From Octopus vulgaris (Eukaryota), in the NCBI GenBank assembly GCA_951406725.2, contig OX597825.1, positions 89,156,001-89,220,000 on the forward strand: DNA of 64,000 bases, written 5' to 3'. The translations under genes were made by a program, and so were the position numbers. The notes under the pieces were generated by a model. That model searched no databases, was not told where the DNA came from, and saw nothing but the letters and a program-made list of their open reading frames with translations. This document shows, piece after piece, positions 509 to 56,046 of the stretch; positions within the stretch are counted from its first letter, which is position 1; each line of letters opens with the position of its first letter.

Positions 509-558
<50 letters not shown>

Positions 559-1077
559 AATGTCTGTCTGTCTGTGTGTTTCCCTAAAACGTGAGAACTA
601 CACAACCAATTTCATTCAAATTTTACACATACCTTACTTAGGGTCCATGTAGTTTCATGGGCAAAAGAAATGTTCAACTTCTTGCCTAGAGCGAGCCCAT
701 AGCAATATCATATCTTCTACACTATTTCAGTATTACGTGTTAAAAGTGAAACAAAAATATTTCTCAGATGGTTTCACTTTAACAATAAAAATAATAATAA
801 CAATTGAATTATATGTAGTAAGTGATAATTAAAATCAAACTAAAGTATGATATAATCGTAACATACAAAAGTAAAAAAGCAATTGGTATAAAATTGCATC
901 AATGATTTGAACTTGAATAAATGGTTTCACATGAATGGGAATGAATTAAAAATAAAATTAGCGTGCAGAAATGGAATAATCCAGATGGATAATAAAAAAC
1001 TAAATCAAAGAAAAGACTATTGTCTATAAAGTATGCAATGTAGAGAAAAAAGAAGAACTAACAATTCCAGTCTGTTA

Positions 1078-2868
1078 ATTGTCCGGGTGTTGTTAGTTGT
1101 GATAAGACGGTGAATTTCTTTCTCTCTCTCTCTCTGTGAGAGAGAGAGAGAGAGAGAGAAGAAAGAAAGAATGAATTGATATGATTTCGCGCGAGGCGTT
1201 TGCCTCCACGTGTTGAAACCTTTTGAAGAAGGTGAATTGACACTCTAGTCAAAAAAGCGATTCGTCGCTAATTGTAAGGGAGGTGTTCTTTGAGGAGAAA
1301 CTCAAAGAATATGAAAAGCTTTTCAAAAGGGAGGGTGATAGCGTGAAGCTAATCCCCCCTCCCGCGAAAACAAAAGAGGATAAAGAAAGCAAGACGGTGG
1401 CATATAGAACCCAAGACAGGAGTACAAGGAAACTGGCAAGAATAGAGATAGACGAAATTGAGAAATGTCTGGGAGACATAATGGGAAAAATAACTTATGT
1501 GAGTGAGGTAAGAAATTTGGTACGGTGGAGGTGAGATGTGCAACGGAGGAAATTGCAGCCTCACTGGCTACCACCGTACTAAGAGCCGAAAAATTCACAA
1601 TGTGGCCCTCATACAAGGGAAGAAGAGGGGTTCGAGTTAAAATCCCGAACATACCCCCAGAAGTTAAAACAGAATGGCTGGCAAAAGCCATTCTAGGAGC
1701 AGCAGAAGAGGAAGTGGAGGTGGAATCGAAAGGGGTCAAACGTGGTGAACTGGAAAGGATATGGGGTGGAATTGTGGATGTTGGCCACAACAGAAGACAT
1801 TGAAAGGCTTCCCTACAGAATAGAGGTGGAAGACGAAAAGACCCTCAGCGTAATCGTAGAGGGGAGAAAACCCAATTGTTACTTGTGTGGGACAAAGGGG
1901 CACATTAAAAAGGAGTGCCCGTTATATGAATTCGTAGCAGAGTGTGAGCAGGAAAAGGAACTTGAAGAAAAGAATAATACATTAAATGAGAAAGAAAGCA
2001 AAGAAAAGGAAACAAAACAACAAGAGAAAGAAAATAATAAGTCAATGAAGGAAAAAGAAATAAAAGGAAAGGAATTAATAGAACCAAAACAGAGTCAAGA
2101 GAAAAAAAGGAAAGAGAAACAACAGGGAAAAACAAGACAAGGAACAGAGACAAGCGAAAAGAAAAGACGGTACACAAAAGGAAAAAGAAACTCCAGGAAA
2201 GGAACATAAAGTACGAGATAAAGAGAAAACAGAAAAAGACATAAAGACAAGAGAAGGAAAGAGAAAGAAAAGAAAGAAAAGAAGAGAGAGAGAAAGAAAA
2301 AGGGGAAAACAAAGAGGAAATAAGTCCGAAAAGGAAGATGAAGGAAAATACAGGACGGAATCGGGATTACTACTATTATAGATTAGTAACCTACCATTTC
2401 TGCCCTGAAATGACCGATGTAACAACTGAAACGGAGGGACATGTATGGGTCAACAGGATGACCGACCGGTGGGAGGAGACTGCTCTAACCCCCGAGGAAG
2501 GAGGCGCTGAGTTCTTCAAAGCTGCCGGGGAAAATGTAATATTTTTCACGAAGGTTCGAGTGAGAGAGCGGCTACCTACGGATTCAGTGATGGACTTCAG
2601 AGAAGTGAAAACAATCGTAGAATATGTGTAAGATTGTAAGAAGAAAAAAAAAAGAAACAATTTGGTGAAATATATGTGAAAAAACTTACGAAAATGTAAC
2701 CTTTTGATTCCGGGGATCGAGTGGACATTTACATCTCATTGTAAATATTCTTTCATATTTCATTATTACTTTTATTTTTTCCTTTTCTTGTCATTTGCTT
2801 TCTTATTTTAAGTTCCCCGGGTGTGTTGTCCATCTCTGTGTTAACCTTTATGGTAAAAAAACAAATCT
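1078..2868 (+). mobile_element. ORF1-only (gag-like) non-autonomous non-LTR retroelement, HAL1-like (element A)
   Basis: Bounded by TTCCAGTCTGTT at 1065-1076 and 2869-2880. It holds a frameshifted ORF1 homologue and no EN/RT. Its A-rich 3' tail is similar to the tail of the downstream LINE. Confidence 0.7.
1283..2631 (+). pseudogene. Frameshifted LINE ORF1 with CCHC zinc knuckle (element A)
   Basis: ORF pieces 1283-1534, 1525-1803, 1742-2209 and 2338-2631. Motifs FGTVEVR, KIPNIPPEV and VEGRKPNCYLCGTKGHIKKEC are colinear with the ORF at 3090-3953. A K/E-rich low-complexity region follows. Confidence 0.75.
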
Positions 2869-3089
2869 TTCCAGTCTGTTCGTCGATTGCTGTTACGTTA
2901 TTTAATACCAGTTTGTAAAAATATTATTGTTATTTTAAATTGTATATTCTGTCTGTTTGTACAAAATTGTTATTTGCCTTCATTTGAAGGTTAGGTATTA
3001 ACCCCCCCCCCCCCGGTGGGGGAATTATCGTAGAAAAATTTACAAAACGGCACAAAAGGCTTGCGAAGCCAGAATTTTGCAAAAAAGGC

Positions 3090-4406
3090 TTGTTAAACCC
3101 AATTGAAAGGCTTGTTAAGCCATATTCGGAGATGGAAACCCCTATCTCTTATTCACCTGTGTCAGGTAAAGAAAGCTCACCGGTGGTGTCGCCGAGAGCA
3201 GGAGAAGCCCCAACGAAGAAGTTTTCAGAAGTGGCGGGCAAGAAACTAAAGAAGATAAACACAGAAAAAAGCAACTTGGAAAAGTATACAACATGTCTTA
3301 AAAAGGAAGGGACAGAAGTGACAGTAACACCGAACGTCAGCAAAATAGAGGAAGTCGAAAAAAGAAGAATAATCTACAAGACATACAACACAACAATGAA
3401 ATCCATTGAAAGAGTGGAAGAAAAGAAAATTGAGAGTTGCCTAAAGGCAATATGGCAGGAAATTACTTACCTGATTCGTGGAAGAAAATTCGGAACGGTA
3501 GAGGTGAGGTTTAGGACAAAAGCGATAGCTAAAAAGCTATCAACTGAACCATTAAAAGCAGACGATATAGTCCTCCTCCCCCTGTACAGAGGCAGAAGGA
3601 CGTCGAAAATCAAAATCAACAACATTCCCCCAGAGGTAGACGCCACATGCCCGGTGGCGGCAGTCATGTTAGGACTGGAGGACAAGATCAATATCCTCCA
3701 GGCTACAGTAGAGGAGGAGGGGCATTGGAAAGGCCAATGCATTTCAATGGCAATACAAGCGGAAATACAGACTTTGGAAGAAATTCCAGAGACGTTGAAA
3801 ATCAACGAGGAGGAGAGAGTAATAGTTTTTGTGGAAGGCAGAAAGCCGAGGTGCTTCGGCTGCGGTAAAAAGGGGCACGTGAGAGCAGAGTGCCAACCTA
3901 AACCACAGGAAGCAGCACCGCCAGAAAAGGAAAAGGAAAAACCAGAAGCATAACCAGACAACTTAAAGAAAACACCAGAAAAAACAGAAAAATTAGAAAC
4001 AACAGAAACAACAAGCTGTGAGGAAAAAGAAAAAGAGGAGGGGTGGGAACAAATCACCAAGAAGAAACGAAAAACAGAAACCACCCCTCAGAAACTGAAC
4101 CAGCCAAAAAAATGAAAAGAGAACACGAGCACATTCATGGCCATTAAGGCATCCAACAACAGATTAATTAACGGTTTGGCAGCGATGTCAATGGTGAGGA
4201 AAGTTAGAAAAACAAAAGACATTATCGTTTACCGAATAGGCCAGAAGGATTACGGACGGATAAAATCCGAATTCTTCCATGACGTGGGCCCTCTGACAAT
4301 GGACATATCACCATATATATACGAGGGCCTGCATCAGACTCCCCCACGAGTCCGGGAAAAAGATAAAAGTGAAGAAAAAGAAGAACAAGTCGAACCACTG
4401 ATATAA
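3090..4406 (+). pseudogene. LINE ORF1 (gag-like, CX2CX4HX4C knuckle), interrupted by a stop at 3951-3953 and a probable frameshift
   Basis: VEGRKPRCFGCGKKGHVRAEC. The K/E-rich frame continues past the stop (EEGWEQITKKKRK), and a C-terminal piece at 4137-4406 ends 8 bp before the ORF2 ATG. Confidence 0.8.
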
Positions 4407-4414
4407 GGTAAGTC

Positions 4415-7400
4415 ATGAATTGCATTTATGTTGGTTGTTTAAATGGGCGCGGTCTGGGATCAAACTGGAAGCAGAGTCGTTTCCTTAATGATATCAGGTC
4501 GCGTAATTTGTATGTCATTGTTGCTACAGAAACCCGGTTAGAGGGACCAAGAGGTCTACTCCCGCTGTTTGACGGCTACGAGAGTTTTTTTTCTCTCTGG
4601 CCATTCCTAACGGCGGGGGTGGGGTGTTGGTCCTGTTAAAAAGAAACCGGGTTTTTGAGAAAATGTTTTCTCAAAAACCCGGTTTCTTTTTAACAGGACC
4701 AACACCCCACCTTCAGATCCAGAAGGTAGGCCGGTCGTCATGGATTTGATGTTCAGTAACAGTAAAGTTATCAGACTGGTTGCAATTTACGCACCCAAAC
4801 AAAAGGGGCAAAGTGATTATTTTCGAGAGCTGGAGAAGTTTCTTGGTACTTCACATTCATTAGTTGTGCTAGGCGACTTTAACACAATTTGCAAGGCGGG
4901 TGTGGATTGCGTTGGCTTGCGTCCAGATAGAAAAGGTAACATTGGCTTCCTGGAATTGCTAAGTCACTTTGAGCTAGCAGATCCTTATAGGTTGGAATTT
5001 CCGAACGCTCCATTGTGGACATGGTCAAGCAGCGACGGATCTTCCAGGTCATACACAGATAAAATACTAATTAGAAAAGTAGACAGAGAAATAGCTAAGT
5101 GTCCACAGTTTTACCCGGTCAGCTACAGTGATCATAAAATAGTCACCCGTAAGCTTGACGTAGATAAGGTTAATAATAGAAGCTCCGGTTATTGTAAACT
5201 TAATACGTTCCTTTTGGCGATTAAGGAGTACAGAGACCGGATTAGGACTATAATTCGGAGGGCGCTATCTGGTGCAATCATTAATAACAAATGGTGGTAT
5301 GCCCTCAAGCGAGCCATCAAATTCGAGTCTATTAGATATAGCATAGGATTAGTGGCTAGAGAGGCTAGGAAGGAATCAACTCTAGTTAAGGAATTAGAGG
5401 AAGCCTTGAAAACTGGCTCTGCGGATCAGGTGACGGCCAAGAGACTGACGTTAAACCAGCACCTCTAGGCCAAACACATGGGCTGCATTGTTAGGGATAG
5501 GATCCGCGCAGTGGGTTGTGAAGGGAATCAACGCCGCGAGATGGGCCCGAATGGTGGAAGCTCAGCGTGGTAATGATGCCACAATTCGATCTTTGACGGT
5601 CCAACAAGGTAAGTTGATAAACGAACCCGAGGAGATGTGTGAGGCCTTTCAGGAGCACTTCGCTCAGCTTTTCGGTGGGGGCGGCGGACCGGATAGAAGG
5701 AGGGACTTTACGGACCTCCTCGACGGACTGCCGCGCCTATCGGGGCGAGATGCGGAGGGCTGTGAAAGGCCAATCACGCCTGAGGAAGTGGCTGAGGCGA
5801 TGGCGGACTGCGGCGCGGGCAAGTCGCCGGGGTTGGATGGTCTACCCTATGAATTATATAAGAGTATGCTAGACTTGTTCGGGCACCTACTGACGGAGGT
5901 CTATGCGAACTGGCAGCAGAACGGGTTCATTCCCAGATGTGTGCGCCGGGGAGTAGAAAGGACTCGAACAAGGAGAGTGCATTGATAATTTCAGGCCCAT
6001 CACTCTGCTAAACACAGAGTTGAAGATTTTGGCCAAAGTGTTATCGAACAGATTGGCGCGTGTCGCGGATGGTCTGATCGGGGAGGCACAGACAAGTGCC
6101 GTTCCCGGCAGATCCATTCAGGATAATCTCCATCTTATGCGGTACACTATAGAGGGGTTTAATAGTATCTCTGGCAAGGGTGGGGCAGTGGCCCATTTAG
6201 ACCAATCTAAAGCATTTGATAGGGTCGACCATCGCTACCTGTTATACGTTCTAGTACAGTTCGGACTGGGCCTTGGCTTCCTCAGGTGGATTATTCAAAT
6301 TTACGATAACATCAACCCGGTAGTTCGAGTGAACGGCTTCTTTTCGAAGCCGTTCAACATCAAGCGCTCGGTTCGTCAAGGGTTTCCGCTCTCCCCGCTT
6401 TTGTACGTAGTGGCTCTTGAGCCATCACTGCTAAAACTGAGCGGCATCCCGAGACAGCCAGGTTGTGGAAAATCGGTGTCAGCCTACGCGGATGACATCA
6501 CCGAAATGGATCGCCTACAGAGGGTAGGTAAGGCCATAGAGGTTTACGAGACGGTGACAAGAGCAAAGGTTTATCGTGAAAAGTCAGTCGGCTTGCAGCT
6601 CGGCACCTGGAGAGGCAAGTCGATACCTCCTGACAGCGTCGTGGGACGTTGGACGGAGGGTCCGATTAAGTTGCTAGGGGTTTGGTTTGGACCAGACCTC
6701 CAAATAGAGAAGAACTGTGGCGAGGTATCGAGCAGGGTGGCTGCAGTAGTCAATACCTGGTCTTGACGGTGGCTATCCCTGAAAAGAAAGGGCGGAGGTA
6801 GCCAATGTGTTTATCGCATCGGTTATCACCAACCGCCTATCCGTTGTTCCTTGCCCTGATTCGTGGTTGATCAAGTTGGAAAGACAGCTCTTCTACTTCT
6901 TGTGTATGAGCGGGAAACCGCTTGTGAAACGCTCTACTTGCTGTCAACAACCGTTAAAGGGTGGGCTAGGGATGCCTTGGCTGATGATGCGCAGACATCT
7001 GTGGCTCTACCTGGATGGTGAACGGGTGAGGTCTCCGCTGGCAAAACTGATGTTTCCCAAGTTCACTAGTTTCGGTGGATGGGAAGCATGGCTGAATCGT
7101 AGATCGAAACTGGGTACATGGTACACGGAGTGTCGCGAGGCTCTCCTGCTATTCCGTCGCTCGGGCAACGCCTGCGGTGGGGGTTCCACGGCATTCTTCT
7201 ATAGAGGGCTGGTAGAGACGGAATGTGAAGATACCTTAGGGGAAGCCCTAGGTCTCGACGATAATCAGCTGGCCAGTCTGTTCCAACGTACATTCAGGCC
7301 GAAGACCCTGGACAACTTCCAGAAGTATCTGGCATGTCAATGTTACAGAGGAGCTCTACCTGTTCGGGATAAACTCGCAAGGCACGGTGGCCAAGACAGT

Positions 7401-7808
7401 CCGACATGCCCAAGATGCAAGCGGGATAGGGAAACGGTCCCGCATGCTATTGTTCAATGTTCGGTCGTGTCAGAGGTGTGGGTTTATGCCGAACAGCTGT
7501 TGTCAAGCACACGAAGAGTACAGCTGTTGACTGAGTCTATTATAAAAATTTACCCACCAGATTTCCTCGCGAAAGAGGGTAAGAATTGTTTTTTCGTTGT
7601 AGTTGCAATTGCGAGAGAGGTGATTTGAAAGACTAGGGTGAAAGGTTTACGGTCAGGCAAGTTCATCTCTGGCCCTGGATTGATGAATTACTTCATCTTC
7701 CACCTGAAACTGAAGATAGGGCTGGAGAGAAAATGCCTGACTAAGAAAGTGTATGAAGAAAGATGGAAGGATGTAGCACGAAAGTTGCGTGTGGATGATA
7801 CCACATAA
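4415..7808 (+). pseudogene. LINE ORF2: APE endonuclease, reverse transcriptase and C-terminal CCHC, with several frameshifts and stops
   Basis: APE motifs GCLNGRGL, TETR, AIYAP, LGDFN, SDH. RT motifs [53 protein letters not shown]-terminal CPRC...ETVPHAIVQC. This layout is typical of L1/Tx1. Confidence 0.93.
4618..4711. repeat. Perfect 46-bp inverted repeat with a 2-nt loop inside the APE coding region
   Basis: 4618-4663 is the exact reverse complement of 4666-4711. Confidence 0.95.
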
Positions 7809-8231
7809 ATGTAAACCAGGACGAAAACCAAAGTATCACTGGTGAGGGGGGTGATTCGTAGGGTGCGAGCTAAACCCGCCCTCACTCCATCCGTAATGTC
7901 TTTTGGTCTGTTCTTTCATTCGATTTTTTGATATTTTTGGTATATTTTTAAAAGCTCATCATTTTTGTAATCCCATCCGCAAATCTGACCCCATATCATG
8001 TTGTATTGTCCCCTCTATGTTCGCCCCTTGTGGGTAATAAAAAATCAATTCCAGTCTGTTATATATTTTGAGTATTGTTATCACTAGTGATATCAATATA
8101 TAATTTTGTATTTTGCATTTTATGTGTAGATGTATATATATATAGATGTACATGTAATATGTACACATATATATACACATATATACGTGCACTAGCACTA
8201 TGACCCGGCAACGACGGGTCTTTAATGCTAG

Positions 8232-8262
<31 letters not shown>

Positions 8263-9075: not shown

Positions 9076-9213
9076 CCCAGTTATTCCTTCAGGGAAGAAT
9101 CCAGGATGCGCAGTCCAATTCTGACTATTAACGTGAAAAAATCCAACGCAAATAATGCAGGCCACCACAACTACATTGAGCAGACTACAGACACAGCTGA
9201 CAACAGATGTAAC
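9076..9213 (-). CDS. SLC7A4-like: Internal exon of a cationic amino-acid transporter (SLC7A/CAT family, most like CAT-4)
   Basis: 138-bp phase 0-0 exon with acceptor tttttctcttcttgcAG and donor GTGAGT. It encodes VTSVVSCVCSLLNVVVVACIICVGFFHVNSQNWTAHPGFFPEGITG, which fits the CAT pattern 'NW...GF.P.G..G'. Confidence 0.85.
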
Positions 9214-9833: not shown

Positions 9834-9864
<31 letters not shown>

Positions 9865-9865
<1 letters not shown>

Positions 9866-10068
9866 GAGAAAAACCACTATTATGTAATTCAAACAATGAT
9901 AGACATAAACCAAGTGATAAATAAAAAATAAAATATATAATAATACTTATTATATATTGATTATTCATTTTTATACTTTTTGTAATCTAGTTATATGTTT
10001 AAAATTTTTTTATTTATCATTTGGTTTATGTCTATCATTGTTTGAATTACATAATAGTGGTTTTTCTC
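9865..10068. repeat. ~64-bp inverted repeat with AT-rich spacer, probably a Penelope-like inverted-end relic
   Basis: GAGAAAAACCACTATTATG...GATAAATAAAAAA (9865-9928) is reverse-complemented at 10006-10068 with one mismatch. Confidence 0.8.
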
Positions 10069-10077
10069 AAATGTATA

Positions 10078-10592
10078 TCTATATATATATAAAACTGTAG
10101 TTGTGTGAGTGTCTGTCCCCTTCGATTTAGATTCCTAACTACTCCCACATTTTGCGGTGCAGTTTAACCAAACTCGGGTATCTTATAGTCGTGATTCATA
10201 TCGAGCCCGTCTGAGTATTAGCGCGCGTCTACGATGAGTCTACGATTTTAAAAATAATTTAACATCATTTTTTATTCCATTTTAATGCATAATTTTTCGT
10301 GTGTCGATGGCGGCGGAGTTGGCGTTCATGGTCACACCTGCACCTGTGTGCTTCTCCCCTTTCTTCCCTCCCTCGTGAAGCTGTGGGGAAGGGAGTGTAA
10401 GGAAATCAACGTCGTAAAGCGTTGTCAAGGAGACCAGCGTTCTTTCAGAACAACAACTTCATGGCTTGAAGACACCAAAACAGAAATGGCTAAGAAAGCT
10501 CGAATTGGTATCTATAAGGGAAGTAACTCTCTAAAAATGCTTATATAGTTATTTCCCTTACAAACCCGAGCAACGCCGGGCGATACTGCTAG
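10078..10592 (+). mobile_element. Non-autonomous Helitron
   Basis: A|TC 5' end, subterminal hairpin CCCGAGCAACGCCGGG, CTAG|T 3' end. A second copy lies at 11447. Confidence 0.85.
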
Positions 10593-11446: not shown

Positions 11447-11839
11447 TCTTTATATATAAAAGTCAAGTTGTGTGTCTGTCTCCTACGATTTTGATTCCTA
11501 ACTACTCCCACATTTTGCGGTGAGTTTTAACCAAAACCGGGTATCTTATAGTCGTCATTCATATCGAGCCCTTCTTGGTATTAGCGCGCGTCTACGATGA
11601 GTCTACGATTAAAAAAAAATTTACCATCATTTTTTCCATTTTAATGCATTTTTTCGCTATTATATAAGGGAAGTAACTCTCTAAAAATATCTACGATGAG
11701 TAACGATTTAAAAAAAATTTACCATCATTTTTTTCCCATTTTTAATGCATTTTTTGGTATTTTTGGGCTATAACTCTCTAAAAATGCTTATATAGTTATT
11801 TCCCTTACAAACCCGAGCAACGCCGGGCGATACTGCTAG
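11447..11839 (+). mobile_element. Non-autonomous Helitron, same family as 10078, with an internal duplication and lacking a segment of that copy
   Basis: A|TC...CCCGAGCAACGCCGGGCGATACTGCTAG|T. The internal ~100-bp unit CTACGATGAGT...TAACTCTCTAAAAAT is present twice. Confidence 0.85.
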
Positions 11840-15206: not shown

Positions 15207-15321
15207 CTTTGCTCCGATCATTGTTACAAATGTTGCTATCAGCACTATAGACAATGCCATGACATCTGGATGCGTGTCCATCCCGGGTCCAGGGGACCAT
15301 CCTAGTCTCTGGTCAAGATAT
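15207..15321 (-). CDS. SLC7A4-like: Internal exon of the same cationic amino-acid transporter, upstream of the 9076-9213 exon
   Basis: 115-bp exon with acceptor poly(T)AG and donor GTAAAC. It encodes YLDQRLGWSPGPGMDTHPDVMALSIVLIATFVTMIGAK and splices in frame to VTSVVS. This fits the CAT pattern 'PD.LA..I......GA(R/K)VSS'. Confidence 0.85.
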
Positions 15322-15650: not shown

Positions 15651-17938
15651 TGATTAATAGATGTTGTTGTTTGTTCGGACGCATAACCCTGGAAAATATT
15701 TGAAGGAAGTTTTTTTTAAATGATTTATTAAAAGAACAAATTATCGTCACAAAACATAACATGAGATTAGAGATTGTACGGAATGAAAATTGCTGTTTAA
15801 AATTACTAGATAATTTAACATTAAGCCATCAACTACGGATTTCGAAACGTTACCTTGCGACAATCACTGCATTCTAAGATCCAAATTACTCTTTGCATCG
15901 GACTACAACATCCACTTTAATGACCGCTTTCTATTGAACATTTTATTAGTCTTGGTACTATAAAGCAGCAACATAGTGGAATAGTTATAGAGTCGGAAAC
16001 AATGGTTTGTGGTGTTTATTGGCTTATTTACGTTCTGAGTTCAAATCCTACCAAGTTCATCTCTCTAGGATCGATAAAAGAAATTCCAAGCCATGAGCCA
16101 GCAAGCACGGTATCAACCAACCCCGATTCTCTGCCAAAGTTTTAAAAAAAAATTTAACAGATTGTGAGATGGCAGTATCGTTACTATACCGGAATAAATG
16201 CTTAGCAACGTTTCTTTCTATAATGCTAGATTCTAAGTTTATCAGAACTAAGTCGTAGCAAAAATGCTATTGGTACCTATAATTATCATGGAAGAATAGA
16301 TTAAGATGCATTTTGTGATATGATACGGGAGGAGTAACAGTCCTTTTTACTAAAATATTTTTGAAGTGTAAAATGTATCAACCAGACTTCAGATTTATAG
16401 ATTAAGTAAATATAAATTACTAAAAGGGAATATATATATATATATGTTCTAAAAATTACTTTTGGATAACTGTAATCTCATGAATGTATCCCCTGTAATG
16501 TCGATAAAGAATGTGAAATGTTAAAAGCTCAAGATAACCAAAACAGGTGTCAAGCATATTGCAATTAAAATATAAAGTCGATGTCTGACTGTGGCAAGCT
16601 CCAGTGATTTGCTATTGTACAAACTTGGAGAAATACCTAGAAAGAAGAAGCTCTGTCTTCACACTGACAATCATCAAACTACTGTAACAGTTTCGAAAAT
16701 CACTTACCACATCAAACTGTGTGCGCGTATATATATATACGTTTGTGTGTGTTTTTGTTGTGTGTATGTTAAAAATTCAGTTAATTGGAGAACAAGCATA
16801 AGAATGACAAAGTAACGCTTATCTATTCGAGAATTCAACGCTGCGAGTTAAATTTTCTGTAGAAGTGCAGCTTACTGTGATTTGATTTTATCTGGAGATT
16901 ATATATATAATATAATTTGTGTATGTGTGTGAATGAGTAGATATATTTAGAGATGCTTATAATCGATACATATTTCTTGATTTTCTCCCTTTGATATGTT
17001 TTTTGTATGACCAAAAATGGAATGAGTACAGTTTAACGAGGATGAAGCGTGAGTTTAACCATAATTTACATATAGGTACATAACAAGTAAAGTGTAGGTC
17101 ATATAATTTACCCTATCATTTGCTACTTTCTCTTGCATATTGTATGTAATACTTGCAGGTCTATATATATTTTAAGAAGCTGTTACCATGGTGATAACTG
17201 TTTAATTTATTTATAGCGCGTGCAATCGATCTGTACTCTTGGCTTTTGTACAGCAAAATGTGAACGGAATTCACTATATATAGAGAGATAGGCAGAAATA
17301 TGACACAGATAGTTGACAAATGAATTTGCAGAATAAACAGAAAAGAAAACAGCATAGATGGGCCTCACAACTATCATGGCAATTTCGATACCGTCTAACC
17401 ATATTTTTCACATCTGCAATAGTTATAAACCAACGGATGAGATAGACGAACAACTAAAGAAAAACATGAAACAAGGCAACAGAATATATATGACAGAACA
17501 TTAAATTCAAATTGTGAGAAGAAAAAGTAATGCAAGACTAGCATTTTGACAGAGATCCATAAAAGCTTACTTCGCTAGCAGATTCGTCTTGGTAGATAAC
17601 CATGTTTTGAAACACGCATTTTGGAAGTATAGTTTCAGCAATAAATACGTGCTTGTCTCCCTCACTAATTTTCCACTCAACTATACAATTAATTAACCAA
17701 TGGTTGCTTGAGTAACCGTTTGAACAATCCATTTATCAATTGGTTTTATAGAAACTTATACCTGCCTCTCTTTCTCTCTCATGTACATTATATATATGAG
17801 AAATTGTCCAATATTCTGACTACCTCCTTTTTCTCAATATACAATATTGCACAATTTTTTTTCAGAAAAAATTTCATCAAAACGTGGCAGCATATTAAAA
17901 TACCTTTAAAGGTTAAAATCATAAACGATTTATAAAAA

Positions 17939-18059
17939 AAGGGCAAAAGAAAAATTATTTCCATGCCAATATACTGGTAACAGACTTTAAGTCGTCAAAT
18001 CCACATATTATATAATGATATGTGGAAGTTGGCATGGAAATAATTTTTCTTTTGCCCTT
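17939..18059. repeat. 31-bp perfect inverted repeat with an internal hairpin
   Basis: AAGGGCAAAAGAAAAATTATTTCCATGCCAA (17939-17969) matches 18029-18059 in reverse complement. The inner hairpin is TCCACATAT...ATATGTGGA. Confidence 0.85.
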
Positions 18060-18149
18060 GTTTATAAGTTGAATATATATATGGATATATGAATTTTTTT
18101 TGCGAAATGAGATAAAAAAAAACCATGGCTGTATAGATATTAGAGCATT

Positions 18150-23420: not shown

Positions 23421-24925
23421 TGTATACATATATATTTATGTATGTACGTGTATATGGCAGATAATGGATGTACGTTGCTCAAACCCCCGCATACTCGTAT
23501 GGCAGAATTGTGATAGTTTCACTGTGGAAGCTTTCTGGGCATAGCAGAAATACAGCAGTATTTGTCAAAAAGCTAACAGGATAAATATAAGTTAAAGGTA
23601 AGCAGCATCTGATGTTATTTCGTTATAATAACTCTGATAGTCTAGAGCCATACTCAACTGTAACTACATATACATGTGCACACATAGAAATACATGCACC
23701 CTCATATGTAGCCAGGTATTCGTTAAAATACACGTAAGGATGTATGTCTGTCCTTTGTATATTATGCATAAAACAGTAAGCAAGAGGAAGGATTAAGGGC
23801 TTCGTATTAGGCAATAAATTCCATGTAAAAGTAAATTTTCGATGCAGTGATCCAGTAGTTCACGAAAATTCATTATTTTCAGGAAAAGAGGGGGAAAAAA
23901 CTCGATTGACGTATATTACAGCGGTGTGCGAGCGCGCGCGCATGTGTGAATCGTGTATTGTGTTTAGTGTATGGCGTGCATCACATACTTGTTTCGACCA
24001 TCAATTATTCCCATGACTTCGTTATTCCGATACGAAGATATTTTCTATTGAAACTTTTGATGTGTAAAAGCATTCTATTTGACGCCATCAATTTGTTTCT
24101 ACCATACCAATATTATTCTATTTTCTGCATCATTTTTATGTCGAGGTTCTACATGTATAAAATAAGATTAATTGCTCTGAAGATAGTAGTCTGGTGTATT
24201 AACGGTATTAATACATTTGTAACTTATGTTAATGAAATCCTCTGAGGAGAGAGCCAAATATCGAATGTCTAAAGGTTATAGCATACGGTAATGGTGTTCT
24301 GTCAAATTTGTTTACCCAAATCTAAAAGCACACATTTCCTTATATAATTCGAAGATTATATTTCCTCTCTTTCATTTCAACAGCTAAAAACATTTCCAGT
24401 TTTACGCAACAACCACTTAAAATCCTGTACTGAAAGAAAATGGGAGAAATTATAAAGCGGTCTCTTTTTTCTTTTTCGATGTTAGAGTAATTTCAAATTA
24501 CATGCATCACTCAGTCACAGACAAATAATTCTCCTGTTAACTCTGAGTAATTGTTAGCACAAACACTATTTCTCCCACAAATCGATCGTCTATTTTGCTG
24601 ATCCACGATGAAAGGCGTTCTATTTAAAACGACTTGGTTTTTCTGATTTTGAATACTTTCACTCGGACACAATCTGCAATGTTGAGGTAAACTGTTAAAG
24701 TACTTTGCTGCATAAGATAAATATGGTTGTTATTTGTAGCAGGCTGAGTGAAATCTAAATAATGGAATCAGGTTTTGGTAAAGTTTCAAATTTTGACACA
24801 AGGTCAGCAATTTCGGGAAAGGTTGGGGGCTAATCGATTACATCGACCCCAGTGTTCAACTGGTATATTTTAAACCTCATGTGGATAAAAGGCAAAGTCG
24901 ATGTCCACACAATTTGAATGAAATA

Positions 24926-26220
24926 CGAGGGACGTTCATTAAGTAATGCCTCTGACCCACTTGCAGTTGTTTGATCTAGCTGAAAGTTTGCATGTGCAAT
25001 TATTTATACCTCTATAGATTAAGTGGAAAATTACAGCTCTGAACTAATTGTGGTTTCTGATTTACAGGTGTTTGAACTGAGTCAAGTGTGAAATGGAGCC
25101 TATTGAGTGTCGAGCAGTGATCCGGTTTTTGTATTTGAAAGGACGCACACCACGGGAGACTTTTGATGAAATGAAAGTAACTTATAGTGATGATGCCCCA
25201 TCATATGAACTTGTAAAACGCTGGCATCGTGAATTCAAACATGATCGGAACTCTGTGGAAACAGCTCCCAGATCTGGTCGCCCCCCTTCTGCCATTGATG
25301 AGGCATCTGTCCGTCAAGTTGAGGCTGCCATTTTAGAAGATCGACGCATAACTATTCGCCAAATAGCCCATGAGGTCAAGATTAGTACCGGGTCTGTGGA
25401 AACTATCATTCATGACCATTTGCATATGCAAAACGTGTCTGCCAGATGGATTCCCAGGTTGCTCAAACCTTTCCAGAAGCAAGAACGCGTCGAGTGCTCG
25501 AAGATGAATTTGGAGATGTGCCAAGAAGACGAGTCAAAATTTTTCAAAAGGCTGATTACACAGGATGAAACCTGGGTCCATCACTATGATCCAGAGACCA
25601 AAGCCCAGTCAATGCAGTGGAAGCACCGTGACTCACCTCCTCCCAAAGAAGGCAAGGGTGCAGCCCTCCGCTGGCAAGGTCATGCTCACACTCTTCTGGG
25701 ACCAGAACGGAGTAGTGATGACAGATTTCTTGGCAAAGGGTACCACAATTACAGGGGCCTATTATGCTTCACTTTTGAGGAAATTAAGAGAAGCTATCAA
25801 AATCAAGAGGTGGGGCAAGATTAGCAAAGGCATCCTCCTCCTGCAGGACAACGCTCTGGTCCACGACTCGCGTGTCGCCAGATCAGAAGCACAGGCGTGC
25901 GGCTTTGAACTCCTCTCCCATCCCCTTCTACTCTTCTGACCTTGCACCCTCTGATTTTCACCTCTTCCCAGCCATGAAGTTGTTTTTGAAAGGAAAGCGT
26001 TTCCCAGATGATGCAGCCTTGATTTCTGAAGTCACGTCGTGGTTGGAGGACCAAACTGGGGTCTTCTACAAAAATGGTCTCCAGAGCTGCATCTAACGAT
26101 GGGAGAAATACGTAACTCCGAGTGGTTCCTATGTAGGAAAAGACTAATAACTGTGCCAAGTGTCGTTGCTCTACTGCTATGGGAAGTGGGTCAGGGGCAT
26201 TACTTATTGAACGCCCCTCG
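24926..26220 (+). mobile_element. Full-length mariner transposon (1295 bp) with TIRs and TA target duplication
   Basis: TA-CGAGGGACGTTCATTAAGTAATGCCTCTGACCCACTT ... AAGTGGGTCAGGGGCATTACTTATTGAACGCCCCTCG-TA. Confidence 0.95.
25093..26149 (+). pseudogene. Mariner DD34D-type transposase with two frameshifts and a premature stop
   Basis: Motifs RSGRP, ARWIPRLL, ITQDETWVHHYDPE, LLLQDNA and YSSDLAPSDF across ORFs 25093, 25565 and 25872. Confidence 0.92.
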
Positions 26221-26304
26221 TACTGCTAAGCATTTTCCCGGCGTGCTACCCATCGAGCCAACACACCACCTTTAGTTCATTTATTGATATTATCAGGTAA
26301 TTTA

Positions 26305-27700: not shown

Positions 27701-27909
27701 AGCTTTTCGAAATGATTTCCACAAGTTTACTTAATATTGGTTTTGTGTGTGTGTGATGATTGTGGTTTTTGATTATCAAGTATGACCCCAAAAACTACTC
27801 ACGCGCAAGCACACAGTTGAAATATATATATATATGTAGGTCCCGGGTTGAGTCGGGGTTAACCACAGTAAATAAGGTACTCAATACATAGCAGAGTAAA
27901 TTAATTTAT

Positions 27910-28031
27910 TTTTATAGAAGGAGTTTCTACAGGACTAGAACTGTTTCATTCAAAAGAAATCATCAGGAAGCTTCCTGATGATTTCTTTTGAATGAAACAG
28001 TTCTAGTCCTGTAGAAGCTCCTTCTATAAAA
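27910..28031. repeat. Loopless palindrome with ~61-bp arms and one mismatch, centred on AAG|CTT
   Basis: 27910-27970 is the reverse complement of 27971-28031. Confidence 0.93.
27969..28019 (+). ncRNA. Type I hammerhead ribozyme motif (Penelope-like element type)
   Basis: Stem I AGCTTC/GAAGCT; core CTGATGA (27975-81); stem II TTC-TTTT-GAA with a T.T closing mismatch; GAAA (27994-97); stem III CAG/CTG; GTA cleavage triplet (28011-13). Confidence 0.65.
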
Positions 28032-28034
28032 TAA

Positions 28035-28074
<40 letters not shown>

Positions 28075-31550: not shown

Positions 31551-33110
31551 CAATCTGTGGCGGAACTCACTGGATGCTGGATATATACCAGAAGACCTTC
31601 TATCCCAATCTGTTGTCCCAGTTTTCAAAAAAGGAAACAAATCGCTTGCCGTGAATTACCGTCCAATCTCACTCACCTCTCATATCATCAAGGTATTTGA
31701 GTGGGTGCTGAGATCGCGTATGACTCACTTCCTTGAGAGTCATAATATGCTGAACCCCAACCAGCATGGATTCCGTAATGGGAGAGATTGCCTGACGCAG
31801 CTACTGCATCATTTTGATAACATTTTGAGAGCCTTGGGAGAAGGTTCCAACACTGATGTCATCTACCTTGATTTCAGCAAGGCCTTTGACAGGGTTGATA
31901 ATAAGATCCTTCTGAGAAAGCTGTCCAATATTGGTGACACTGGAAAGCTGCTGCAGTGGATCAAGTGCTTCCTGTCTAACAGAACCCAACATGTTTTAGT
32001 CGAAGGAGTCAAATCCAGCCCAGCCAAAGTCAGCAGTGGTGTCCCACAAGGCACTGTGTTGGGCCCACTTCTCTTCATCATCTACATAAATGATATTACT
32101 GACACCATCAAACACAGTAACATCAGAACCTTCGCTGATGATTCCAAGCTCCAGAAGGTCATCAATGGCGTGGATGACCGAATAAACCTTCAGTCAGACC
32201 TTCTGACTGTTGTCCAATGGGCAGAAAAGAATAACATGTTGCTAAATGAAGACAAATTTGAACTGATCCACTTTGGAAGGGAGGACGCTCTCAAACTCCC
32301 ATACTCTCTTCCTTCTGGAGAAATTCTCATGGCATCCAACAACATCAGAGACCTGGGAGTAACAGTGGACAACAACATAAGCTGGGCTACACATATAAGC
32401 AGCAAAGTTGACATGGCCCGCAGAATGTGTTCCTGGATTCTCAGAACCTTCCAGTCGAGAGATTCCCACGTTATTATCCTTCTCTTCTCCACTTTTGCCC
32501 GACCCCACCTTGAATACTGCTGTCCAATGTGGTCTCCCTACACAAAACAAAATATTATGAGAATTGAAGCTCCCCAAAAGTCAATCACAAAAAAGATAGA
32601 TGGCATGTCAGACCTTGACTACTGGGGTAGACTAGAGAAGCTGAAATTGTATTCACTCCAACGACGCCGTGAACGCTACATTATTTGTATGATGTGGAAA
32701 ATATTCCATCAGCACTGTCCGAATGATGTTGGCATCACCTTCAAAATGCATCCAAGGCTTGGACCACGTGCCATCCGTCCACAACAAAAATTTAAATCGC
32801 ATCACATAACGACAATACGGCACAACTATTTCACCTCAATTGGACCCGCTCTCTTCAACATTACACCAGGACACGTCAAAAAAGAAACTGACCACACAAA
32901 ATTCAAGAAGTCTTTGGACAAATTCCTTCAAACAGTACCGGACAAACCACCCACACCCGGATATGTCTCCGCAAACAATAACTCTCTGCTCGAATGGGCC
33001 TTGGTGCCCAAATCCTGAACTGAAAGACTTCGCCAGGTGGTGCTATTAAGTTAGACATGGCCTGGGCCAATACTGGCCAAAACCTTTCTAAGTTATTCTA
33101 AGTCTAAGTT
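31551..33110 (+). mobile_element. 5'-truncated CR1-clade LINE (family 1) with an uninterrupted RT frame to 33018
   Basis: [59 protein letters not shown]. The tail is GGTGGTGCTATTAAG...(CTAAGT)n, and both sides are (TA)n. Confidence 0.92.
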
Positions 33111-33146
33111 ATATATATATATATATATATATATAAAACTGTTGGA

Positions 33147-35300
33147 TAACTTGGGCATATTTCAGCCAAAGATTGGCCCAGGCCATGTATGCGTTGATAG
33201 AATCACCTGCTACGGCGTTTTAAAGTCAGGTTTTGTGGTATCGTGGCCCACTCAGGTTGGGAGTTGTTTTGGGCTGAGGTATATTCAGGTATATGTGGCT
33301 TATCTGTTATTCCTCAAAGAAATGTGTCCTGGTTCCGTTTGAAGGTGATGGGATCCTTTTTCTTTTTTTGATTTCTTTTGGGTCATTATTAAACAGAGCA
33401 GAGTATGTTGAGGAACAGAATTTGTGTTGTTGTGAATTTAGATGTTGCAATCCCGAATTATGCAGGGGGCGTATGGCACGTGGCCCTAGCCTTGGATGAA
33501 TTCTGAATCTAATATTGAGGTCTATCGGGTAATGCTGGTGGTATATTTTCCACATTGTGTAGATGATGTAGCGGTTATGGCAGTGTTGGAGAGAAGAAAT
33601 TTCTAATGTTTTGAAGTGATCCTTATCAAGATCACTTACTCTCTTAATTTGTTTAGTGAGTGTTCCCTGATGTGACTCGGTATTTTCGTAATGCCTTGTT
33701 TTGAGTGGGAGACCACGAGGATCAGCAATATTGGAGTTGTGGCCGTACAAAGGAGGTGAATCATGACATCTTACTCTCTGGACTGAAGCGTTCTGAGGAT
33801 CCAAGATCTCATCCTGTGAAATATATCGACTTTGAAAATTACTATTTTTGAATCTCACAACATGAGATATTCAGCAACAGTACTTTGTAGTAAAGATTGT
33901 TTGCCAACATAACATGGCAGTCCTGGTTTAGGATTAATGTTGCTTTAATTTAGCCCCAGGAGGCAAAGTCTGAATATCTCACGTTCTGAGATTTAAATGT
34001 AGCAGTTTTGAAAGTCGATATATTTCACAGGATGAGCTCTTGGATCCTTGAGACATCGTCTTCTGGGGTTAAATTACAGCAACATTAGTCCTAAACCAGG
34101 ACTGCCATGTTATGTTGCAAACAATCTTTACTATATCGACTTTGTTGATGTGGGCGCTCCAGCTGGGATTGTTGTCAACAATCACTCCTAGGTCTTTGAT
34201 ATTATTAGATGCTGCAATCACTTCCTCTCAAAGAAGAGAATATGGTTGTTTGAGAATAGTTTTTTCCCCAAAATGCATGTTTAAATTTCCTCTCATTTAG
34301 CAGCATTTCCTTTTTTTCTACCCATTGGTTTACAGCATTTAGTTCAGTTCGGTCTTCTCCATTCATAATTTTCTAGAGCTTACAGTTATCAGCGAATATT
34401 TTAAACTTGCCGCGCTTGACGACGATTGAAATGTCTTTTATATAGACTATGAACAGAAGTGGGTCCAAAACAATCCCCTGAAGGACACCACTGGTCACAT
34501 TTTCTGGGCTTCAGTGGATTCTATCGGTCACATGTGTTCTGTTCACCAGGAAATACTTAATCCAGTGTAGCCGCTTCTACGAATTCCAATATTTGATCAT
34601 TTTGATAGGAGGATATTGTGGTCGACTCTGTCCAGCGCTTTACTGATATTAATAAGTTTTAAGGACATCATCGATGTGAAGTAAGAGATGTGTTAAGCAG
34701 TATCTGCCGCAGCAAAAGCCATGCTGGTTAGAATTTAGAAGGTCGCTGTTCTCTGGGAAGCTACCTATCCTTCATCTCAGCACCCTTTCACTCATTTTGT
34801 TGACATGGGAGGTGAGTGTGATTGAGCGATATTTGACTGCAAGGTACCTGTTTCTCTTTTTGAAGGCCGAGATGGCACATTGGAATAAGTACTGTTTCGG
34901 TACATAACCTGATTCTAAAGAATTTCTCCAGAGGTTGTTTAGAGGGGATGAAAGTTGTTGTCTGCGGGGTTTCTATTAGGGCCTGGAGCAGAATAGCACT
35001 TGATCTCATTTATTACTGCTATGATTGCTAAAACAGTAGAAGTTTTATCCGAGATATGTTGAGGATTAAGTTCGTTCAGATCCTTTGCATCAATATCAGT
35101 GGGACCACTAAAGACAAAGCAGGCATCATTATCAGTGGGATCAGTAAAGACAGAGCAGTATTGTTTCTGCAGTATTTCTACCATTTCTTTAGTCTCCTGT
35201 TAGAGAACGCTGTTATTATCATCAATCAGTGGACCAACGGAGGGGACGAAAGTCCCATGCTTTTTGGCATATGAATTGAACACTTTGGATTCTGTTTGAT
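33147..35300 (-). mobile_element. Older, decayed CR1-clade LINE, tail-to-tail with the 31551 copy
   Basis: Minus-strand peptides RYIIYTMWKIYHQHYP...[11 protein letters not shown] and EILQKQYCSVF are homologous to family 1. Confidence 0.85.
33795..34135. repeat. Interleaved inverted repeats X-Y-X'-Y' inside the CR1 copy
   Basis: X ~33795-33873 matches X' ~33970-34049, and Y ~33887-33960 matches Y' ~34062-34133, both in reverse complement. Confidence 0.8.
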
Positions 35301-36900: not shown

Positions 36901-37039
36901 AAGAGGAGAAACAGCAGAATAAGAGGGACACCAGATTTAACGTATCTGGAAAAGAAAAAAACATTGTAATGGTCTTTCGCGTGACAAGTGTTTAGAAGAA
37001 TTGAAGGGAAAGCAAATTGAGACATAGGTACCCATTTCT

Positions 37040-37265
37040 TTACTACCCACAAGGGGCTAAACACAGGGAGGACAAACAAGGATAGACAATCGGATTAAGT
37101 CGATTATAACGACCCCAGTGCGTAACTGGTACTTAATTTATCGACCCCAAAAGGATGAAAGGCAAAGTCGACCTCGGCGGAATTTGAACTCAGAACGTAA
37201 CGGCAGACGAAATACGACTGCGCATTTCGGCCGGCGTGCTAACGCTTCTGCCAGCTCGCCGCCTA
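37040..37265 (-). mobile_element. Full-length tRNA-derived SINE with a Nin/Deu-like central domain
   Basis: The minus strand reads GGCGGCGAGCTGGCAGAAGCGTTAGC...GTTCTGAGTTCAAATTCC...GGTCGACTTTGCCTTTCATCCTTTTGGGGTCGATAAATTAAGTACCAG. Several copies occur in the window. Confidence 0.8.
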
Positions 37266-37799
37266 TTGAGACATAGGTACCGCGTCTCGAATAAAGGAGG
37301 AAAATACTACACTGAAGTTAAATTCGTTAAATTCTCCGGCACGCAAAAATGGATAAGGAAAACATCAGACGGTGGTCGGTGGAGAGAACATGCTGATCCT
37401 TCCGTCCAGCCCTGGACTGAACATGTGCAAGGAAGATATGCACCTTGCATAAAATATAAACACTCACAGGTACATTATTTTGGTGGCGTCAGAGGGTTCT
37501 TATTCTGAGGTTGTGTTGTCGGTAGTGAGGATCTTCAAGCAAGTTGCAATTGGGAAAAAATAATGGGGTTAGCACATTTATCTATTATTTTCTAGTTGTT
37601 GGCTGTGTTTGTGGGGGAAAAGTAGGACAAAAAGAAGGAAACCGGATGGAAGAAAGGTAAAAAGGAAATGAAGATTATTCCCCCACCATCGCCCCTGTAA
37701 TAAAAACAATATAGCCACAGAGATATGTACAAACTCATCCATTCTTTAGGTCACAAGGTGACTGAAGATTCTGCATGTCAACGGATGGAACTCAGAGTA

Positions 37800-42694: not shown

Positions 42695-42741
42695 GATAGA
42701 TAGATGGATACGTTTCAGAGACAGAACCATCCTCTAGCATC

Positions 42742-42957
42742 ATTGAACATTATCCACGATAGGTACATATAGGACTAAATATTAAAATATCTAAATTAAT
42801 ACCTTTAATTCTTATTACAAATCATATACTTTACATTATATAACTACACGCGTGTAATGTAAATTATATGATTTAGAATAAGAATTGAAGGTATTAATTT
42901 TGATGATTTTTTAATATTTAATCCTATATGTACCTATCATGGATGATGTCGTTCAAT
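42742..42957. repeat. Imperfect palindrome with ~100-bp arms
   Basis: ATCCACGATAGGTACATATAGGA..AATTAATACCTTTAATTCTTATT is mirrored by AATAAGAATTGAAGGTATTAATT..TCCTATATGTACCTATCATGGAT. Confidence 0.8.
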
Positions 42958-43002
42958 CATGATTGAGTTGCTTGAAGGTGATTCTGTCTCTTAAACCTAT
43001 AC

Positions 43003-43048
<46 letters not shown>

Positions 43049-45664: not shown

Positions 45665-46600
45665 TGACGATATACATTGAAAATCTTTGCAGATGATTCC
45701 AAACTCCAGAAAGCTATAAACGGCATAAGAGACCGAACACGCCTTCAGTCAGATCTGTTTGCTGTTGTCCAATGGGCAGAGAAAAACAATATGCTTTTAA
45801 GTGAAGATAAGTTTAATTTGATCTACTTTGGGAAAGAGTAAATTACAATATAGTCTTCCCTCGAGCGACTCCCTAGTGTTATCCAGAGATCTTGGAGCAA
45901 TTGTTGATAATAATCTAAGTTGGAGTTCCCATGTAAACAGCAAGATTTGACTTGGCCCGCAAGATATGGTCCTAGATTCTGAGAATTTTCCGGTCTAGAG
46001 ATGACTACACCATCACCCTTCTCTACTCTACTTTTGCCCGATCCCACCTCGAATACTGTTGCCCAATGTAGTTCCCCCATACGAAGCAACATATTATGAA
46101 AGTAGAATCACTCCAGAGGCCCATAACAAGGAAGACAGACGGCATGAGAGGCATTGATTATTCGGGTCGACTAAAAAACTCAATCTCTACTCTCACCAAC
46201 GCCGGCGGGTTCGCTACATCATTTGTGCTATGTTGAAAACATTCTATCAATTTTGCACAAATGATGTTGGCATCAATTTTAAGATCCATCCCAGACTTGG
46301 CCCCCGTGCTTTTCCGCCCATTACAAAAATCGAATTCGGTGCACATAGAAACGTTACGTCACAATTACTTTTTCTCAACCGGTCGAGGTCTCTTTAATAC
46401 CATACTAAAATACGTCAAAATGGAAACGGTTCTCATAAAATTCACATTCACTGGACAAATTTCTTCAAAAAATCTCCAGCAATGATACCTCTTTGCTACA
46501 GTGTGCTATTATGCCCCATATACGACTAAAAGACTTCACCAGGTGGTGCTATTAAGTTATACATGGTCTAGGCCTATACTGGCCGAAGCCTATCAAAGTT
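45665..46600 (+). mobile_element. Decayed 5'-truncated CR1 family-1 LINE
   Basis: The [10 protein letters not shown]...[10 protein letters not shown] region and the tail GACTTCACCAGGTGGTGCTATTAAGTTA match the 31551 and 53400 copies. Confidence 0.85.
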
Positions 46601-46864
46601 ATATATGTATATACATATATGTATCTACACACACACACACACATATATATATATATGTGTGTGTGTGATAGGCTTGGAAGTAGTAGTGATGCTGGTTGGT
46701 GCGATTTTGTGGTTAAGTCGTATGCCGAGAGAGATTCAGCGCACAATCGTATACAAACATACACATACATGCACACACACACATACACAAGCACATACCT
46801 AGAGGGAGAGGCAGGCAGACAGACAGCGTCAGATAGTACACAACGCCAAGAGAAATGTTTGTAT

Positions 46865-55967: not shown

Positions 55968-55992
55968 TATATATATATATATATATAAATAC

Positions 55993-56046
<54 letters not shown>

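Follow-up and report, generated by a model that had tools for sequence, protein, structure and literature searches.

Introduction

In Xenopus laevis, Tx1L, an endonuclease-type LINE of established specificity, inserts at a fixed sequence inside Tx1D, a non-autonomous DNA transposon of the piggyBac cut-and-paste type (summarised in PMC4494074). In crocodilians, the same source places Tx1-Mar and the snRNA-derived SINEU-3 in Mariner-N4_AMi and Tx1-9_AMi in Harbingers; it also lists two families with LTR elements as hosts. It describes tandem Tx1 copies that sandwich the target site duplication (TSD), takes a Tx1 family as target-specific when more than 20% of its flanks come from one target repeat, and tests targeting against hitch-hiking. 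Elements that encode ORF1 only, known as HAL1 (half-L1), have been described from mammals (PMC5753468). Helitron1 elements canonically end in CTRR, and a palindrome of 16-20 nt lies about 11 bp from this 3′ end (PMC4067079).

Here we describe a locus of Octopus vulgaris where two related, broken LINE-type elements, A and B, lie head-to-tail at one short sequence within a small Helitron-like element. The window, that is, the whole stretch of DNA that was analysed, comprises 64,000 nucleotides of contig OX597825.1 and is AT-rich, microsatellite-rich animal DNA. For this species, the supplement to PMC13282606 lists 80 L1-Tx1 families and attributes 1.02% of the genome to Helitrons, and the paper gives 421 recently active L1-Tx1 insertions and 178 Helitron insertions.

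As far as Tx1L and Tx1D are summarised in PMC4494074, the octopus locus resembles them in that a non-autonomous DNA transposon harbours an endonuclease-type LINE at a fixed sequence. However, the octopus host is Helitron1-like, and the specificity of the octopus pair rests on one locus, with a LINE that is here called L1/Tx1-like. The likeness to the crocodilian Tx1-Mar and SINEU-3 of the same paper extends to the sharing of a site in a DNA transposon by a LINE and a non-autonomous passenger and to tandem copies that sandwich a TSD of about 16 bp, and the same question of targeting versus hitch-hiking arises. The passenger in the octopus is an ORF1-only element instead of an snRNA-derived SINE, and the host is Helitron-like; moreover, unlike SINEU-3, a SINE that shares the LINE tail in the octopus does not occupy the LINE site in its one full copy. 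The host itself is short and non-coding and, like non-autonomous Helitron1 elements (HLE1) in the descriptions of PMC11417382 and PMC4067079, ends in CTRR with T as the next base and has a 3′ palindrome about 11 nt upstream of that CTRR, but it lacks their 5′ TC.

Results

A tandem LINE pair between direct repeats

Elements A and B lie in tandem on the forward strand between exact 16-bp direct repeats (Table 1). At up to two mismatches, this repeat has two matches in the window, which are the two outer copies (shuffle mean 0.06). A 12-bp core is common to the three copies of the motif, against a chance expectation of 0.009 per window. The outer copies are identical, and the middle copy is the odd one out, differing at both junction edges. 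The tails of A and B both terminate in AAAT immediately 5′ of the first C of the motif. Tandem insertions that sandwich a target copy are a feature of target-specific Tx1 families (PMC4494074), and this arrangement is found here, with three motif copies.

Given 39% identity over 57 amino acids between the ORF1s of A and B, we consider the two elements to be distinct families, and tandem duplication of one element is ruled out. The presence of two distinct families at one 12-bp core implies a sequence preference in at least one of the insertions.

Table 1. Positions of the features within the window
Feature	Position	Strand	Remarks
(TA)n run absorbing the host 5′ end	509-551		boundary without TC dinucleotide
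5′ part of the non-coding Helitron1-like host	541-1061	+	29% GC; start not base-exact
Target-site duplication, left copy CAATTCCAGTCTGTTA	1062-1077	+	exact 16 bp, not extendable
Element A, ORF1-only non-autonomous LINE derivative	1078-2866	+	broken ORF1, CCHC knuckle, B-related 3′ tail
Middle variant target copy, separating A from B	2867-2881	+	12-bp core 2869-2880 identical; both edges differ
Element B, full-length decayed L1/Tx1-like LINE	2882-8045	+	ORF1 and ORF2 with APE, RT, zf-RVT
Target-site duplication, right copy	8046-8061	+	exact 16-bp match to left copy
3′ part of the Helitron1-like host	8062-8231	+	29% GC
19-nt subterminal palindrome GACCCG-N7-CGGGTC	8202-8220	+	ends 11 nt before 3′ end
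CTAG 3′ terminus followed by T, then second (TA)n run	8228-8232	+	CTAG = 8228-8231
232-nt SINE with B-type 3′ tail	37033-37264	-	82% over 45 nt, E 2e-05
Fold-backs	4618-4711, 9842-10091, 17930-18067, 27897-28043, 32643-33603, 33796-34133, 42705-43003

Element B, a decayed L1/Tx1-like LINE

ORF1 of element B (3132-4406) is interrupted by two in-frame stops; ORF2 (4415 to about 7808) shifts frame at least four times, contains three or more stops and includes a 94-nt inverted duplication. The domains detected in ORF2 are RVT_1 (E 6.7e-24) and zf-RVT (E 3.4e-09), along with Exo_endo_phos (E 5e-05), which scores below its curated cut-off. The zf-CCHC domain scored in A only, and ORF1 of B displays the pattern CX2CX4HX4C. 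The layout is that of the L1/Tx1 group: a CCHC knuckle in ORF1 and, in ORF2, an N-terminal AP endonuclease, a reverse transcriptase (RT) and a C-terminal zinc-binding domain. When the RT of B was compared to solved structures (10 PDB matches), L1 ORF2p came out on top, narrowly, with 74.8 bits versus 69.5 for R2. Among the homologues listed for the RT, the best comes from Argonauta hians, at 58% identity, and points to an octopod source. Because the homologues listed include no named Tx1 reference (117 of 120 are unnamed), B is labelled here as L1/Tx1-like and not assigned to the Tx1 clade.

Other LINE remnants in the window, distantly related to B, lie at 31552-33135, 45680-46656 and 54428-56019, these three being 69-84% identical to one another, and at about 47233-49281.

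Element A, an ORF1-only derivative

The broken ORF1 of element A contains its CCHC knuckle at about 1874-1921 (PF00098, E 2.6e-05). No ORF2 remnant was found in A, either with six ORF2 queries run against the whole window or with 180 homologues, which covered about 94% of A. The 3′ tails of A and B align with a score that was reached by none of 500 shuffles. With ORF1 alone encoded, ORF2 absent and a LINE-type 3′ end retained, element A is HAL1-like (PMC5753468). A (CT)n-(GA)n fold-back occupies 1119-1160, near the 5′ end of A. The HAL1 tail is of the poly(A) type, whereas A carries a sequence-specific tail that is common to B and to the SINE, and its ORF1 is far diverged from that of B.

The host element

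Without the insert, the host is about 0.7 kb of non-coding DNA with 29% GC, flanked by two (TA)n runs. The original prediction had recognised a Helitron-like 5′ part at 541-1061. This stretch indeed aligns with three Helitron-like starts, at about 10077, 11447 and 22503, with scores that none of 300 shuffles reached in each case; position 541, however, proved to be an arbitrary start because the 5′ part begins inside a (TA)n run. A retest with the TA run removed covered two of these matches: the match to 22503 holds (44 versus a shuffle maximum of 31), whereas that to 10077 fails (47 of 300 shuffles reach the score). All three elements start with TC preceded by A, and at the host boundary this 5′ TC is absent. 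For that reason, we call the host Helitron1-like only and do not file it as a member of HLE1, bearing in mind that one base change could hide the TC. With respect to HLE1 insertion, which takes place between A and T and creates no target duplication, a T flanks the 3′ end of the host, and the 5′ side sits in the TA run, where it cannot be placed. In a check for Helitron2/Helentron (HLE2) structure, which has short terminal inverted repeats and T|T insertion, the 5′ and 3′ parts of the host did not match each other at E 0.01, a weak test for repeats of 12-16 nt; judged from its bases, the host end, CTAG followed by TA, seems to fit HLE1 better than HLE2.

The 3′ end anticipated by the original prediction, a hairpin with CTAG and T after the insert, was confirmed: the hairpin starts 141 nt and CTAG ends 170 nt after the insert. 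The 19-nt palindrome is nested in a longer imperfect palindrome (8191-8232) and, folded as DNA, yields -10.4 kcal/mol (z -5.1; 0 of 200 shuffles). Both HLE1 features of the 3′ end are present, namely the CTRR end, here CTAG, and a palindrome of 16-20 nt about 11 bp from the end. The predicted resemblance to the end at 10592 also holds up, with a local score of 30 against a mean of 12.4 and a maximum of 22 in 300 crude block shuffles; that end and the one at 11839 show 100% identity over 72 nt. When the window was scanned strictly, for a perfect hairpin and CTRR followed by T, the host palindrome alone was detected, once on each strand; such a scan misses the imperfect stems at 10592 and 11839. 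The same scan of 30 shuffled windows gave 21 matches in total, about 0.7 each. Because this combination is not rare in shuffles, its weight comes from the position beside the insert and from the likeness to the end at 10592. A degenerate hairpin pattern built from the three ends was set aside as circular.

Non-autonomous HLE1 elements are multicopy and have termini in common with a RepHel-coding partner. No second copy of the host was found within the window, and the 12-bp core has no match, at up to three mismatches, in the three other Helitron-like elements of the window. Past their ends, the host and the elements at 10592 and 11839 differ in family. The anatomy of the locus supports the proposal of a Helitron1-like host and a sequence preference of the LINE pair.

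Two related non-autonomous Helitron-like elements, with 5′ parts 87% identical, occupy 10077-10592 and 11447-11839 on the forward strand. A further Helitron-like 5′ end, from about 22503 on the same strand, is the closest match to the 5′ part of the host; no matching 3′ end was recognised for it.

A SINE with the same tail

The last ~45 nt of a SINE, which we take to be of the octopus type, are shared with B and A; this similarity suggests that the LINE lineage is its partner, and the SINE probably uses B-type machinery. It is the only full copy in the window with a B-type tail and lies outside any recognised Helitron. Its target duplication is 17 bp long (copies at 37265-37281 and 37016-37032) and agrees with the LINE motif at 5 of 16 positions, a score reached by 68% of random sites. 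This unrelated duplication cuts against strict targeting. The sequence GTCT, common to the LINE and SINE duplications, was dropped as a candidate signal, since a run of four occurs at 8% of random sites. A reverse frame of the SINE matches 32 proteins, about six of which, by eye, carry the B-type tail; three of these six extend into the 5′ flank, and in a weak test, none of these three had the residues expected for GTCT at a fixed position of the duplication.

Searches in other sequence collections

Contig collections with little or no DNA of this organism yielded blanks that carry little weight: the 3′ hairpin of the host had no match in viral contigs, and the motif with its 3′ flank none in GTDB contigs. 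The LINE tail pattern had no match in viral contigs, again a weak blank, and six in metagenome contigs, none of which was like the window beyond about 21 nt. For one ORF2 homologue, viral and metagenome contigs provided no confirmed locus, which is similarly weak. In a protein search, likewise weak, the spurious frames across the 3′ junction and in the 5′ part of the host had no homologue. Of the 24 sequencing runs listed, eight, from five studies and under four organism labels, contain 26-41% of the sampled words, none of them half; neither these shares nor the smaller ones of the other runs are used as evidence here.

Other features of the window

At least seven local inverted duplications, or fold-backs, of 94 to about 960 nt, with arms 65-98% identical, are scattered over the window. 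A Mariner-like element at 24924-26222 has 39-nt inverted ends that are 92% identical and a Mos1-type HTH domain (E 9e-08). Exon-like stretches with canonical splice signals lie on the reverse strand at 9076-9213 and 15207-15320. The former weakly resembles an amino-acid transporter (E 0.23); on that account, a transporter gene on the opposite strand may contain or adjoin the composite of LINEs and Helitron.

Discussion

Our leading explanation of the locus, based on the one copy examined, is that the motif used by a site-preferring L1/Tx1 lineage, and by the ORF1-only passenger of that lineage, belongs to a Helitron family; we give it about an even chance. Under this explanation, the endonuclease of the LINE would prefer a sequence of 12-16 bases that many members of a Helitron family likely contain. 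The B-type ORF2 protein would nick at the 5′ edge of the motif, prime reverse transcription there and leave a duplication of 15-16 bp; the nick is placed at this edge because each tail finishes with AAAT, which the first C of the motif follows immediately. Element A, without an ORF2 of its own, would borrow the B-type ORF2 protein through its B-like tail, and such borrowing would explain why A occupies the same site as B. The Helitron was most likely first at the locus, with the LINEs inserting into it and then decaying in place.

The order of the two insertions can be envisaged in two ways. A and B might have arrived sequentially, in which case a junction was imprecise or a change followed. 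Alternatively, the pair might have assembled elsewhere, at a target copy of slightly different sequence, and reached this locus as a single RNA. Two sequential insertions lead one to expect a middle copy equal to one of the outer copies, but the observed middle copy deviates from both. Because its differences are confined to the two junction edges, however, imprecise junctions or a single later change suffice as an explanation. Under either scenario, the motif served as a target two or more times.

A lineage dependent on one sequence would, we infer, require a multicopy target. The flanks of the site showed no match to snRNA, tRNA or rRNA families and do not consist of microsatellite, so that the remaining customary targets of Tx1 elements drop out. 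An RNA gene as the target was rejected, given that no Rfam family matched at gathering score in the window and that the sub-threshold matches near the site were mostly microsatellites. Helitron-like DNA, with three elements counted, makes up about 2.8% of the window minus the insert, and its share of the genome, quoted above, is of the same low kind; such scarcity makes a chance landing in a Helitron unlikely a priori.

The main competitor is a preference of the LINE lineage for a motif that is short or loose and dispersed through the genome, or for one housed mainly in another repeat; the Helitron context would then be incidental. We regard this as possible, at a distinctly lower probability than targeting. 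The site of the tail-sharing SINE, unrelated to the LINE motif and outside any Helitron, speaks for it, as does the chance expectation for the 12-bp core, about 375 occurrences if the genome is taken as 2.8 Gb with the same base composition; furthermore, long non-autonomous Helitrons inflated by nested elements are rare by-products in the account given in PMC12001565. However, two families would seldom coincide at one site if usable sites were very numerous, and the prior for landing in a Helitron is about 1-3%. The SINE, for its part, may rely on the endonuclease of another family because so many L1-Tx1 families are listed for the species.

The original prediction further proposed that the 7.7-kb composite could move by rolling-circle transposition. 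If it had been copied to or from this position in that way, a repeated association of LINEs with Helitrons would reflect the hitch-hiking of one or a few insertions. The 3′ hairpin and CTAG are intact, and Helitrons do amplify captured sequence, as described in PMC12001565. Beyond the intact 3′ end, we obtained no positive evidence for this movement: no second composite was seen in the window or in the contig searches, and the host has no 5′ TC. Moreover, hitch-hiking leaves the sharing of one motif by two families unexplained and, according to PMC4494074, was tested and rejected for SINEU-3 and Mariner. We consider it unlikely.

It is very improbable that the flanks are AT-rich intronic sequence or unrelated fragments, with a hairpin and CTAG that arose by chance or belong to a separate remnant: the missing 5′ TC, the failure to find a second host copy, the frequency of hairpin and CTRR ends in shuffled windows and the low GC content and partly low complexity of both flanks could be read in this way, but the target duplication joins the two halves into one pre-insertion sequence, and each end is similar to Helitron-like ends elsewhere in the window, in the correct orientation and order.

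On present evidence, the locus is one more example of the known habit of Tx1 elements to target transposons. We found no report of a LINE family that targets a Helitron in the titles and abstract openings of the papers retrieved; such a case may still be recorded in Repbase, in subscription papers, in the PMC4494074 supplements or in the repeat library of the octopus.

At its most far-reaching, the finding could mean that an octopod L1/Tx1 lineage and its ORF1-only passenger are specialised on one internal site of a non-autonomous Helitron family and that occupied Helitrons are re-copied by rolling-circle transposition. This combination appears quite improbable; if it were true, LINEs would be propagated as DNA within the very element that they target, in a parasite chain of three tiers. 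Should a genome-wide count confirm the targeting itself, Helitrons would join piggyBac, Mariner, Harbinger and LTR elements as targets of Tx1-type LINEs, and an ORF1-only passenger would be shown to inherit the choice of target. The system would then also permit a clean test of targeting versus hitch-hiking, since an occupied site can be amplified again when its host moves by copy-and-paste.
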